Position numbers: made by a program
Part shown: positions 27,001 to 30,000 of the stretch, piece after piece
Position numbering within the stretch: the first letter of the stretch is position 1
Layout of the letters: each line of letters begins with the position of its first letter
NCBI GenBank assembly: GCA_031362565.1
Contig: JANLSU010000001.1
Coordinates: 32,524-96,523, forward strand
DNA: 64,000 nucleotides
Reading direction: 5' to 3'
DNA from: a bacterium
GTDB lineage: Bacteria > Krumholzibacteriota > Krumholzibacteriia > G020349025

Positions 27001-30000
27001 TGGACACCGACCTGCCGCCTGAATTCGGCGGCGCCGGCACCGCCTTTTCGGCCACCGATCTGCTGGCCGCCGCACTCGGCACTTGCATCGCCACCAGCAT
27101 CGATACGGTAGCGGTACGGCACGGGATTCCGCTCGAAGCGATCACCGTGCACGTCGACAAGACACTCGGCACCGAACCGAAGCGCATCCAAGAGCTGCGG
27201 GTGACGATCGCCGTCGCAGTGGTGCTCGATCCGGCGATTGCGCTCCGCCTCGAGCGGGCGGCGGCGGCTTGCACCGTGCACCACAGTTTGCATCCGGATG
27301 TCGCCGTGCCGGTGACCGTCGTCAGCGGCGCTGCCGCCGCTGGGATGGCTTGAGGTGGCGAGGCCGCGCCGGCTTCGCGTTGCTGCCGTCGAGCCGTACT
27401 TCGGCGGGTCGCATGCACATTTCCTCCGCGATCTGCAGCGCTTTAGCACGGCGCGCATCGAACTCTTCACGCTGCCGGCGCGGCATTGGAAGTGGCGCGT
27501 CCGCGGCGCCGCGCTCGGTTTGGCACCGGCGCTCGCCGCCGCCCAAAAGCGCGGCTTCGACGTGCTCCTGTGTTCCGATTTCGTCAACGTTGCGGACCTC
27601 AGGGCGTTGCTCCCGCCGGCGCTACGCGCGGTACCGGTGTTGTACTACTTGCACGAGAATCAATTGACCTACCCGCTCTCGCCGGCCGAGGACTTCGACC
27701 CGTACTTTGGTTTTACGAACGTGCTGTCGTGCTTGTCGGCCGAAGCGGTGGCGTTCAACTCGGACTTCCATCGCCGTGAGTTCCTGGCTCGGTTGCCCAA
27801 GTTCTTGCCGCGCTTGCCCGACTACGATCGCCAGGCCGTGGTCGAAACGATTGCCGCCAAGGCCGAAGTGCTGCCGGTGGGGCTCGACGTGGCGGAAATT
27901 ACCGCCCATGCGCCGCCGGTGCACAATGCCGTGCCGCGCATTCTCTGGAACCACCGATGGGAGTTCGACAAGCAGCCGGAAGTGTTCTTTGCGGCGCTCG
28001 AAGTGCTGGCGTCCGAGGCCGTGCCGTTCATCGTCGACGTGCTCGGGGAGTCCTTCGCGCGCCGCCCGCCGGTCTTCGACACGATTCAAGCCCGGTTGGG
28101 CGAGCGGGTCGGGCATTTCGGGACGGTGACGTCACGGGAGGAGTACCTGCGCTGGGCCGGCCGGGCGGACATCGTCGTGTCGACCGCGCAGCAGGAGTTT
28201 TTCGGCATCTCGATGGCCGAGGCGGTGCTCTGTGGGGCGCACGCGATCGCGCCGCGCCGGCTCGTGTACACGGACCTCTATGGCGGGCCGTGTGCGCGCC
28301 TCCATCTGTACCGGGACGAGGCAGAACTGGTTCGCCTGCTGCGGCGCGAACTCAGCGCACCAAAATTACACAATTGTAATCTTGCCGCCCGCTATCGCGC
28401 CTTCGACTGGCGACACGTGGCGCCGCTCTTCGATGCCCGTTTCAAGGCGCTGGCTGCCGGGCGGAGCCGCGCCGGGACTGCGTGAGCTTCCCGGCCATCC
28501 GATGTACTGTTCGGTCCGTAGTGGAGATGGGTCGTAGCCGGGGCCTTGTCTCATTGGCGTCGAGTCCCGCCGGGACGTCCCACAGACCGTACAGGCAATC
28601 CTACGGAGGCCATGATGAAGAGGAAGCACTTGTTCGCGATCGGCATGGCGCTGGTCGCATCCGCCGCGGGTCCCACGGCGTGGGCCGCGGACCACAAAGA
28701 CTCGGCGGCGGTGGAACGTGACCCGGCGACCGACATCGCGGATGTCTATGCCTTCCGTCGCGGCGACAACCTCGTGGTGGCGATGACCGTCCAGAGTTTG
28801 TTGGTCTCGGGCAACGCCACGGATCTTTTCAATCCGCGCGCCAAGTATCAGATCTTCGTCGACAACACGCCCGCCGACGCGCTGGCGCCGAACGCGACGA
28901 TCACGGTGACGTTTTCGGGCAGCGCCCCGCAGCAGTTCAAGGTCGAGGGCCTCACGTCGACCCCGATCGTGGGACCCTGCAGCGGCTTCAGCAACGCCGC
29001 AACGCCGGCCGTCACGACGAGCGGCGCCGTCAGTGTGTTCGCCGGCCCGCGCGACGATCCGTTCTATTTCGACCTGGCGGGATTCCGTGAGTTCATCGCC
29101 GGAACGTATGTGCCGGCCTCCGGCCTGCGCAGCAATTCGACTGGCCTGGCGCGCAACACGTTCGCCGGACTGAACGTCGCGGCAATCGTCATCGAGCTGC
29201 CTATCATTGCCGTAACCGGTCAAGCGACTCCGAACACCGGCGTCATCCGCGCCTGGGGCGCGACATCCGTTCTCGAATGATCCGGGCATCCATTGAACAG
29301 TGCGCGCCGCCTTTGCGGCGCCCGATGAAAGGAAATCCAGTGAAGCAGGTGTCCAAGATTGTGGGCGTGGTGATCCTGGCTGTAGTCGCTCAAAGCGGTT
29401 GCAACAACGATGACTCGACGAGCCCAACGACCGGTAACTACGTGCAAGTGGATCGCATGGCGATCCCGGCGTTGAACACGGCGCTGATTCCTTCGGCGCA
29501 GAAGGAATCGTTCAATCGCTCGAACCCTTCCGGCGACGCTGTCACTTTCAAGGCAGCGGTCATCAGTTCGATTACGGCGCTGCGGGCGAACGTCGCGACC
29601 CGCGGGTTGGGCCCCGAGACCGGCACCCTGACGCCGGCGCAACTCGCGGACGTCATCATCCCCGACGTCGTGACGATCGACTTTGCGTCGGCCGTCAACT
29701 TTCCGAACGGCCGGGACCCGGACGATGACGTGATCGACGGGGTTCTGAGCCTGGTGCTGAACCGCGCCGTTGGCGACGGCATCGTCTCGGACAACACGAT
29801 CCTGGCGACGTTCCCGTACCTCGGCGTACCCAACAAGTTGCCGAAGCCGGGGATCTGATCACCGGCGCACCCCGCGCCCGGGAGCCTCTCCCCTGAAGGC
29901 TCCCGGGCGCGTCTTTCACCGCCGGCGCGCGCCACGCACGCGTGCAAACGTGAACGATGCCCACAGACTCTGCCAGTCCGCCTGGGCTCGATCCTCACTC

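Follow-up and report, generated by a model that had tools for sequence, protein, structure and literature searches.

A candidate tRNA-queuosine hexosyltransferase of the QTMAN family in a sediment bacterium of the Krumholzibacteriota

The window analysed here is a 64,000 nt stretch of contig JANLSU010000001.1 (assembly GCA_031362565.1) from a sediment bacterium of the phylum Krumholzibacteriota. At positions 27355..28485 of its plus strand lies a gene whose predicted product can be assigned, on solid sequence grounds, to the QTMAN (GTDC1/DUF3524) family, and we propose, with a probability of about one half, that this protein is a tRNA-queuosine hexosyltransferase. The enzyme would be a soluble, retaining-type GT-B glycosyltransferase that takes a hexose off a nucleotide sugar and attaches it to queuosine (Q) at tRNA position 34, through a hydroxyl on the cyclopentenediol ring. 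By analogy, the donor may be GDP-mannose and the target tRNA-Asp(GUC), although the donor could differ and further GUN tRNAs could be targets. Glycosylation would follow the action of Tgt, QueA and QueG, which would make Q on tRNA from salvaged preQ1. We infer the acceptor, the donor and the target tRNA, as well as any influence the sugar may have on decoding or on the stability of the tRNA. Glycosyl-queuosine is the most economical reading because membership in the family is solid and because the substrate, Q-containing tRNA-Asp, should exist in the cell.

If the enzyme works on Q-tRNA, glycosylation of RNA would extend to bacteria. There would then be a simple genetic system in which to ask how the Q sugar affects decoding and the stability of tRNA, and light would fall on where the animal gene came from.

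Gene, domains and predicted fold

The gene opens with a GTG start codon, encodes 376 amino acids and is present in one copy in the genome. Its N-terminal part (residues 9–177; 27379..27885, plus strand) is a QTMAN_N domain, presumably the acceptor-side Rossmann half of the enzyme. It matches PF12038 with E 6.8e-56 and 189.1 bits against a Pfam cut-off of 25, and the match extends over profile positions 2–168 of 168, that is, the full length of the domain. The C-terminal part (approximately residues 186–340; 27910..28374, plus strand) is assigned as a GT1/GT4-type nucleotide-sugar domain from weak Pfam matches, the fold and an hhalign comparison; in this half, residues 196–299 score below the Pfam cut-offs for both PF00534 (21.3 bits versus 26.4) and PF13692 (18.4 versus 27).

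An AlphaFold2 model of the protein (pLDDT 96.2, pTM 0.93) has a complete GT-B/GT4 glycosyltransferase fold. The model is compact and soluble, its first strand begins at residue 8, and neither a signal peptide nor a membrane segment is evident. Together with the reading frame and the PF12038 score, the model bears out the report of a QTMAN_N plus GT4-like gene at this site in the genome-wide survey's note. When the model was used as a Foldseek query, the structures recovered were GT4 enzymes of the retaining type (TM 0.6–0.73, E 1e-13 to 1e-9, identity 11–18%), among them MshA, PimA, BshA, GlgM, sucrose-phosphate synthase and tetrahydrobiopterin alpha-glucosyltransferase. Every one of these neighbours has a small molecule, a lipid or a glycan as its acceptor, which counts against a role in tRNA-Q modification. 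A search of PDB sequences gave a best match of only E 0.04, in agreement with the earlier statement that no solved structure is found by sequence at E<1e-5.

Residue conservation was read from an alignment of 142 diverse members of the family. The window protein keeps all of the invariant or nearly invariant residues, which fall in the motifs GGSH, WKWR, HENQ, FNS, NHRWExDK and ExFFGIS..E. Those of the N-terminal domain are S19 and H20; W45, K46, W47 and R48; Y98, H100, E101, N102 and Q103; and F134, N135 and S136. In the HENQ motif (H100 to Q103; 27652..27663, plus strand), three residues (H100, E101 and Q103) never vary, while N102 is conserved in at least 90% of members, as is the FNS motif; HENQ and FNS are the motif names used in the Pfam description of DUF3524. 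The C-terminal domain carries the sequence R201-W-E-x-D-K206 (27955..27972, plus strand), part of the family signature NHRWExDK. Here R201 is invariant, W202, E203 and D205 are each conserved in at least 90% of members, and all 142 rows have a basic residue at the position of K206, which is lysine in at least 90%. An acidic pair, E281-x7-E289 (28195..28221, plus strand), is of the E-x7-E kind typical of GT4 enzymes; position 281 is E or D across the family, G284 is invariant, and F283 and E289 are conserved in at least 90% of members. Solved retaining GT4 enzymes thus resemble the window protein in their GT-B architecture and acidic pair, whereas the WKWR, HENQ and FNS motifs of the N-terminal domain are specific to the QTMAN family. 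The idea that the N-terminal domain is the more conserved of the two was dropped, as the mean frequency of the top residue within bacteria is 0.50 for this domain and 0.49 for the C-terminal one.

The queuosine route and the distribution of the family

Genes for the late steps of Q synthesis are present in the host. The epoxyqueuosine reductase gene queG lies in the window at 1074..2060 on the minus strand (C111:33597-34583 in contig numbering; TIGR00276, 392 bits), some 25 kb upstream of the glycosyltransferase gene and not adjacent to it, and the genes for Tgt and QueA adjoin each other on contig C91. We also recovered a preQ transporter of the Vut_1/YhhQ type (153 bits) and tRNA-Asp(GTC) at C123:35435-35511, so that each of these components named by the survey was found again; the G34 tRNAs of the genome are those for Asp, Tyr, His and Asn. 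The survey's further claim of a full queuosine pathway did not hold. A QueC search of the host genome returned 0 matches, QueF gave only a sub-threshold score (23.4 bits versus a cut-off of 27.3), and a tblastn search of the genome with the QueF of a relative found nothing, in an assembly whose completeness score is 100%. Because QueC and QueF have no match above cut-off while YhhQ is present, the host looks like a preQ1 salvager, and, judged from its gene content, Q-tRNA-Asp should be available in the cell as a substrate. For the putative sugar donor, a ManC-like GDP-mannose pyrophosphorylase is encoded, matched over its N-terminal part with 307 bits, which is below the cut-off of the bifunctional model.

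The family is large and bacterial, comprising 940 clusters at 50% identity (E<=1e-30), and all of the named proteins among the matches listed in the databases are from bacteria. As previously described, many of them bear names of the kind 'glycosyltransferase involved in cell wall biosynthesis', DUF3524 or 'tRNA-queuosine alpha-mannosyltransferase domain-containing protein'. Within the host phylum, 146 of 208 genomes (70%) are carriers, and 99 of the 125 of high quality; the survey's note gives 57%. The family is found in 57/301 genomes (19%) of a second phylum and in 8/251 (3%) of the Spirochaetota. Two family clusters in a language-model atlas have Actinomycetota as their commonest phylum, a group in which Q is often lacking. 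A search for longer, fused members found none, which is weak evidence.

Co-occurrence with Tgt was considered as a sign of phyletic dependence and set aside as uninformative. Tgt is present in 201 of the 208 genomes of the host phylum, in 47 of 50 other carrier genomes, and in all 20 non-carriers sampled from another phylum; QueA exceeds its cut-off in two of the three carriers that have no Tgt match. As Tgt is nearly universal in carriers and non-carriers, its presence in 47/50 carriers has almost no discriminating power. We also considered the bacterial enzyme GluQRS (YadB), which adds glutamate to Q34 of tRNA-Asp. The nucleoside and tRNA are the same as those proposed for the window protein, whereas its fold and chemistry are unrelated. 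GluQRS does not exceed its cut-off in the host genome or in any of 57 carriers, and does so in one of the 208 genomes of the host phylum. Because GluQRS is nearly absent from the whole phylum (207/208 genomes have no match), no complementary pattern between the two families can be read, and the apparent one is a phylogenetic artefact.

Relatives in animals and on a viral contig

Animal QTMAN (GTDC1) shares with the window protein the full-length QTMAN_N domain, the GT1/GT4-type C-terminal domain and the GT-B fold; the bacterial protein is shorter. The basic pair of the bacterial protein, R201 and K206, lies at the GT4 donor-diphosphate position and is invariant. According to a preprint, the only characterised member of the family acts on tRNA, and K296 is needed for the activity of human QTMAN and for manQ formation (bioRxiv 10.64898/2026.06.28.735034). 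K206 may be the counterpart of human K296, which is an assumption on our part. Animal hosts insert dietary queuine, whereas this bacterium would build Q on the tRNA through Tgt, QueA and QueG. The literature available treats mannosyl- and galactosyl-queuosine as belonging to the tRNA of vertebrates or animals, and one preprint monitors manQ at m/z 572 to 163. Among the titles and abstracts searched we found no report of glycosyl-queuosine in bacteria, and the term 'DUF3524' had no match.

A tblastn search of 50,697 phage records with the family gave no match, and a scan of viral contigs yielded a single distant locus, on an IMG/VR contig (L087:2978-4057), whose family further comprises P0272-P0274 and P0276. 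A rescan of the viral contigs with this phage glycosyltransferase returned only itself. Its C-terminal, donor-side domain is specifically QTMAN-like, as it aligns with the QTMAN family by hhalign at 99.6% (E 6.8e-24) over residues 171–341 of the window protein and carries NHRWEFDK, the same motif as the bacterial family. The first match outside its own family in a search of 5.8 billion proteins was a PF12038 protein (P0275). In contrast, its whole N-terminal domain differs and does not align to QTMAN_N proteins. The phage gene stands last in a run of FolE, GATase-QueC, an oxidoreductase and the glycosyltransferase. FolE/Gat-QueC clusters are of the type used for 7-deazaguanines in DNA, and because of this location the phage enzyme probably serves modification of a DNA deazaguanine rather than of tRNA.

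These relationships allow a broader proposal, which we hold tentatively and rate at somewhat short of even odds: that several bacterial phyla hexosylate Q34 with members of this family, that the phage sister family acts on 7-deazaguanine in DNA, and that animal QTMAN descends from the bacterial family.

Gene neighbourhoods and candidate acceptors

In the window, the glycosyltransferase gene follows guaB (IMP dehydrogenase; 25408..26919, plus strand; TIGR01302, 623 bits) and an OsmC/Ohr-like gene (26928..27353, plus strand; PF02566, 51 bits), as the survey had noted. The three form a tightly packed run that begins with guaB. The OsmC-like gene has an in-frame GTG at 26928, 8 nt past the guaB stop, and its own stop lies 1 nt ahead of the glycosyltransferase start; no terminator-like sites were found on the plus strand between 25000 and 29000. 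A DUF4331 gene is also among the neighbours, and there is no glycan or lipid biosynthesis cluster around the gene.

For a wider view we examined neighbourhoods at 81, 87 and 40 loci, using our own ORF caller with a filter on codon-position GC; the family gene itself went uncalled in 10, 2 and 9 of them, in that order. Annotation was confined to representatives of the clusters into which the neighbours fell. No general partner gene emerged from these sets, and the family gene mostly stands alone in varying housekeeping contexts. Proximity to queF (27 of the 81 loci) and queG (13) was counted in favour of tRNA-Q modification; it is the synteny of one phylum and has been lost in this genome. Overall, the neighbourhood evidence consists of lineage-local hints. 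Neither the co-occurrence of Tgt nor gene neighbourhood fixes the acceptor. The survey's proposal that this bacterium glycosylates queuosine-34 is partly supported, through family membership and a route to Q-tRNA.

An unlikely explanation, though one with several observations in its favour, is that the protein is a glycosyltransferase that works in the cytoplasm on a small molecule and has nothing to do with queuosine, for example a sugar-phosphate or glycoside synthase whose product would lose its phosphate to an HAD-IIA enzyme, the one encoded beside the family gene in most Krumholzibacteria, and that animals later recruited the fold for tRNA. Pairing of a glycosyltransferase with an HAD phosphatase is known from sugar-phosphate synthase/phosphatase pairs of the SPS/SPP type. 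A gene for an HAD-IIA hydrolase (TIGR01460, 110 bits) lies directly downstream of the family gene in 24 Krumholzibacteria loci, 28 of the 81 contain one, an alpha/beta hydrolase gene then follows in 50 loci, and one 589 aa protein (P0223) fuses QTMAN_N/GT1 to an HAD domain, although this may be a read-through of gene calling. The Foldseek neighbours that act on small molecules, and a family pI (median 6.4) that is not notably basic, point the same way. However, the window gene has neither an adjacent or fused HAD phosphatase nor an alpha/beta hydrolase beside it, and the best HAD-like tblastn match in the genome is only 25% identical and lies on another contig (C2). The partners are missing in most other lineages examined, with an HAD-type gene just upstream only in L067 and L098, and the characterised tRNA enzyme is itself defined by this family-specific N-terminal signature. 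The automatic name that refers to tRNA-queuosine, which has spread widely, would need correction should the acceptor prove to be a small molecule.

It is improbable that the protein acts on some other 7-deazaguanine compound, such as free queuosine, queuine, a salvage precursor or a deazaguanine base in DNA. The host, with YhhQ and no QueC or QueF, has the gene content of a salvager, and the phage sister family sits in a deazaguanine cluster. Yet the phage proteins differ across the entire N-terminal domain, no DpdA or dpd genes were seen near the bacterial genes in the annotated neighbour sets, and tRNA is the substrate of the sole characterised member (bioRxiv 10.64898/2026.06.28.735034). 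A role in the envelope, whether in cell wall, lipid or exopolysaccharide synthesis, we regard as very improbable. It is suggested by the JGI name carried by many homologues, by NCBIfam matches to EpsE (19.5 bits) and HpsP (15.9), and by GT4/GT9 or GT4 plus methyltransferase neighbours in L054, L059, L072, L209 and L211. The database names are generic, however, the NCBIfam scores are far under their cut-offs of 400 and 550, and the compact soluble model does not suggest an envelope protein. At most loci by far the gene stands alone, away from any glycan cluster. Another glycosyltransferase was near it in 3 of 19 loci not of the Krumholzibacteria type (±3 genes; L001 and L041 left out) and in 2 of the 31 second-phylum loci (±2 genes; 15 of 89 representatives left out), and there was none among the 140 neighbour representatives annotated for a further set of 85 loci (±2 genes; 28 short ones of <95 aa and 9 long ones of >880 aa left out). 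That glycosyltransferases so rarely adjoin the gene argues against the name 'cell wall biosynthesis'.

With respect to hexosylation of Q34 in tRNA, genes for RNA modification and translation do occur nearby; by a rough estimate over some 85 distinct contexts, they are not clearly above chance. A small NSUN-type RNA m5C methyltransferase is near the family gene in three spirochaete loci (L052, L067 and L080); as a partner it was rejected, being absent from all seven further spirochaete loci. A radical-SAM gene beside queG in relatives, considered as a possible Q gene, encodes an AmmeMemoRadiSam enzyme. TrmB directly adjoins the family gene in L060, L065 and L078.

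The glycosyltransferase gene and its predicted product

The gene for a glycosyltransferase (GT) resembling QTMAN, the animal tRNA-queuosine mannosyltransferase, lies at positions 27355-28485 of the forward strand of the window and encodes 376 amino acids from a GTG start codon. The genome-wide survey's note had reported a QTMAN_N domain in this ORF, and the domain is indeed present: Pfam profile PF12038 matches at 189.1 bits (E 6.8e-56; gathering score 25), with residues 9-177 aligned to profile positions 2-168 of 168. The C-terminal half is below threshold for both Glycos_transf_1 (21.3 bits; cut-off 26.4) and Glyco_trans_1_4 (18.4; cut-off 27), and NCBIfam profiles gave nothing meaningful for the protein (EpsE, 19.5 bits; cut-off 400). 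The gene is present in one copy in a genome scored as 100% complete.

Databases already give homologues the homology-based QTMAN name, and the gene is a new bacterial member of an already known family. Published work describes mannosyl- and galactosyl-queuosine as modifications of vertebrates or mammals that QTMAN and QTGAL introduce, gives GDP-mannose as the donor for mannosyl-queuosine and reports that human QTMAN requires K296 (bioRxiv 10.64898/2026.06.28.735034). No paper in the literature searched contained the term 'DUF3524', and none of the listed titles and abstracts concerned glycosyl-queuosine in bacteria; the original QTMAN paper (Zhao et al. 2023, Cell) may mention bacterial homologues. 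The present analysis adds the apparent salvage status of the host, the finding that co-occurrence with Tgt and GluQRS does not discriminate, a four-set neighbourhood survey in which the GT is a singleton outside glycan clusters, and a sister family from phages, encoded within a FolE/QueC cluster.

The protein was aligned with 141 diverse relatives, most of which each stand for one 50%-identity cluster. Six columns show no variation (H100, E101, Q103, R201, G231 and G284) and about 30 more are at least 90% conserved. Conserved blocks include GGSH (18-20), WKWR (45-48), YxHENQxxYP (98-107) and FNS (134-136) on the N-terminal side, and WNHRWExDKxP (198-208) and the acidic pair E281...E289 on the C-terminal side; both halves show equal conservation among bacteria (mean top-residue frequency 0.50 versus 0.49). 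An AlphaFold2 model built from this alignment (mean pLDDT 96.2, pTM 0.93) consists of two Rossmann-like halves. When it was compared with the PDB by Foldseek, solely retaining GT4-type glycosyltransferases of the GT-B fold were matched, including MshA, GlgM, sucrose-phosphate synthase, PimA, BshA and tetrahydrobiopterin glucosyltransferase (TM-scores 0.6-0.73, identities 11-18%), and a sequence search of the PDB returned no sequence-level relative (best E 0.04). On this basis the protein is an intact, soluble QTMAN-family glycosyltransferase that is probably active.

The GT is tightly packed behind guaB (IMPDH; forward strand, stop at 26919) and an OsmC/Ohr-like gene on the same strand (in-frame GTG at 26928, stop at 27353, 1 nt before the GT start), and no terminator-like or sigma-70-like sites were found on the forward strand between 25000 and 29000. 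Downstream are DUF4331 and DUF4198 genes. DUF4331 matches fall in two consecutive forward-strand ORFs (28546-29280 and 29277-29858, overlapping by 4 nt) that correspond to different parts of the profile (125-236 and 224-292 of 421). They are either one gene that has been split or frameshifted, or a form made up of two genes; the DUF4198 gene (29916-30794) follows on the opposite strand. The reverse strand carries, 2.5 kb upstream of the GT, a DUF2064/TIGR04282 protein (23888-24832; 147 bits, cut-off 134), a family that NCBI names 'arsenosugar biosynthesis glycosyltransferase'.

Family distribution and the queuosine route of the host

Searching 5.8 billion proteins gave 1928 matches at E<=1e-5 among 8000 candidates scored; the 120 of these that were listed all carry PF12038 and are all metagenomic or MAG proteins. 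An exhaustive search of 50%-identity representatives gave 2681 matches at E<=1e-3 and 940 at E<=1e-30. Within the host phylum, 146 of 208 genomes carry PF12038 (99 of 125 high-quality genomes), patchily among the families (90/91, 17/43 and 6/23). Elsewhere it occurs in 8 of 251 sampled Spirochaetota, in 57 of 301 genomes from the phylum containing genomes G013 and G031, and in none of 14 well-known control genomes. Submitter labels disagree with this grouping: G013 is labelled 'uncultured Anaerolineales' but falls in the same phylum sample as G031, whose record is titled Planctomycetota, and 'uncultured Fibrobacteraceae' is the title of many loci that have a gene block of the Krumholzibacteria type. 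Family clusters listed in the ESM Atlas, a language-model protein atlas, are all bacterial and bear automatic QTMAN-derived names. Two QTMAN_N clusters there (77 and 102 members) have Actinomycetota, which often lack queuosine (Q), as their commonest known phylum.

Tgt is encoded by 47 of 50 other carrier genomes; two of the three exceptions have QueA over the cut-off, and the third, a MAG of 2.9 Mb, lacks both. This co-occurrence agrees with Q glycosylation yet tests nothing, because Tgt is near-universal, being found in 201 of 208 genomes of the host phylum (124 of 125 high-quality) and in 20 of 20 non-carriers of a second phylum. One other enzyme, GluQRS, is known to modify Q34 of tRNA-Asp. 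It is absent from all 57 carrier genomes, and this signal is likewise empty since 207 of the 208 phylum genomes lack it anyway. The host has no GluQRS above the cut-off; two matches to the model (230-235 bits) sit in long frames and are probably GluRS.

The survey's note had placed the GT beside a full queuosine pathway. Its observation of the gene is real, but the pathway claim fails: a QueC profile found no match in the host genome, the best QueF candidate is sub-threshold (23.4 bits), and tblastn with a relative's QueF gave no match. The host retains adjacent tgt and queA on contig C91 (474 and 318 bits), queG on the reverse strand of the window (1074-2060; 392 bits) and a YhhQ/Vut_1 precursor transporter (153 bits), and therefore looks, from its gene content, like a preQ1 salvager that completes Q on tRNA. 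Despite the incomplete pathway, Q-tRNA should be available as a substrate for a Q-glycosyltransferase; genes for tRNA-Asp(GUC), His(GUG), Tyr(GUA) and Asn(GUU) are present. The genome also has a ManC-like gene, whose match to a GDP-mannose pyrophosphorylase model covers the N-terminal part (307 bits).

Gene neighbourhoods

Neighbouring ORFs were called with a simple codon-position GC filter and clustered by BLASTP, and cluster representatives were annotated with Pfam or NCBIfam, for 81 genome loci (the window included), 7 further spirochaete loci, 80 metagenome loci and 40 loci of a second phylum. About 57 of the 81 share one block: NMO, queG, an AmmeMemoRadiSam radical-SAM gene, queF on the opposite strand and a divergent S8 peptidase, then the GT, a HAD-IIA hydrolase and an alpha/beta hydrolase, with cdaA-folP-ftsH-tilS further along. 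Because this synteny belongs to one phylum, it is worth roughly one observation. By individual gene, queF was found in 27 of the 81 loci (median 3.5 kb upstream of the GT), queG in 13, HAD-IIA in 28 (24 directly adjacent) and the alpha/beta hydrolase in 50. The radical-SAM gene following queG (L007-L045 and others; representative L044:1420-2490) was considered as a Q gene and rejected, being AmmeMemoRadiSam (TIGR04337, 335 bits). In the window the block is broken, with guaB and osmC preceding the GT and the hydrolase about 8 kb downstream. Relatives (L002-L079) keep queF upstream, and its loss in the host accompanies the rearranged locus.

Nineteen loci represent other lineages (L001 and L041, where the ORF caller missed the target, were left out). 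TrmB directly adjoins the GT in three related loci (TIGR00091, 162 bits; cut-off 112.65), and a 260-aa NSUN/RsmB-F-type RNA m5C methyltransferase lies directly downstream in three spirochaete loci, an arrangement found in none of the 7 further ones. BipA is nearby in one of the 19, and phosphomannomutase-type genes in two; three have GT4/GT9 or GT4 plus methyltransferase genes, and in the remainder the surroundings are unrelated housekeeping genes. In the metagenome set, a divergent clade collected with database protein P0212 as seed, smpB occurs in 17 of 80 loci (13 adjacent) and tyrS in 15 (TIGR00234, 374 bits), with no glycosyltransferase among 140 annotated neighbour representatives. In this marine clade (L103-L182; for example L126:4445-5650 and L136:288-737) smpB divergently adjoins the QTMAN-like gene with tyrS alongside; tRNA-Tyr belongs to the four tRNAs that bear Q, and the proximity may be coincidence. 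Contexts in the second phylum, where the target was called in 31 of 40 loci, are variable: an LpxD-like acyltransferase in eight, GT4 genes in two, and pseudouridine synthase, BipA and EF-G once each. By a rough estimate, translation-related neighbours over all contexts are not clearly above chance. The GT is almost never within a glycan cluster in the surveyed loci, and the sole pathway-specific neighbours seen are queF/queG and trmB.

The acceptor and a viral relative

The best-supported mechanism, to which we assign a probability of about 0.5, is that the GT would add a hexose to tRNA-bound queuosine. A role as a Q-independent glycosyltransferase of small molecules is a less likely alternative, suggested by the HAD-IIA gene that adjoins the GT in many Krumholzibacteria, by database protein P0223 (589 aa), in which a HAD domain is joined to QTMAN_N/GT1, and by sucrose-phosphate synthase among the Foldseek neighbours; glycosyltransferases paired with phosphatases are characteristic of sugar-phosphate or osmolyte synthesis. 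However, the HAD partner is absent at the host locus and also beside the GT in most other lineages, and the best HAD-like match elsewhere in the host genome is only 25% identical. Action on another deazaguanine acceptor seems improbable, and a function as an envelope enzyme more improbable still. The QTMAN_N/GT1 part of P0223 is N-truncated; the protein may be a genuine fusion or may come from reading through a GT gene into a neighbouring HAD-IIA gene, the arrangement seen in Krumholzibacteria.

A tblastn search of 50,697 phage records gave no match. Scanning viral contigs under the guidance of a profile turned up a single locus, on the phage contig L087 (IMG/VR). Here (L087:170-4965) FolE, a GATase-QueC fusion and a GFO/IDH/MocA-type oxidoreductase precede a 359-aa GT and a 301-aa protein, the last two without a Pfam match. 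The arrangement resembles a cluster for 7-deazaguanine modification of DNA to which a glycosyltransferase has been added. The 359-aa protein carries the family signature NHRWEFDKNP, and its first match outside its own small family is the PF12038 protein P0275. A profile of this protein and its four homologues aligns with that of the bacterial family at 99.6% probability (E 6.8e-24), within the C-domain that bears the common signature and no further (query 171-341). The locus links this GT-B branch to 7-deazaguanine chemistry a second time, with moderate support because the shared part is the donor-side domain.
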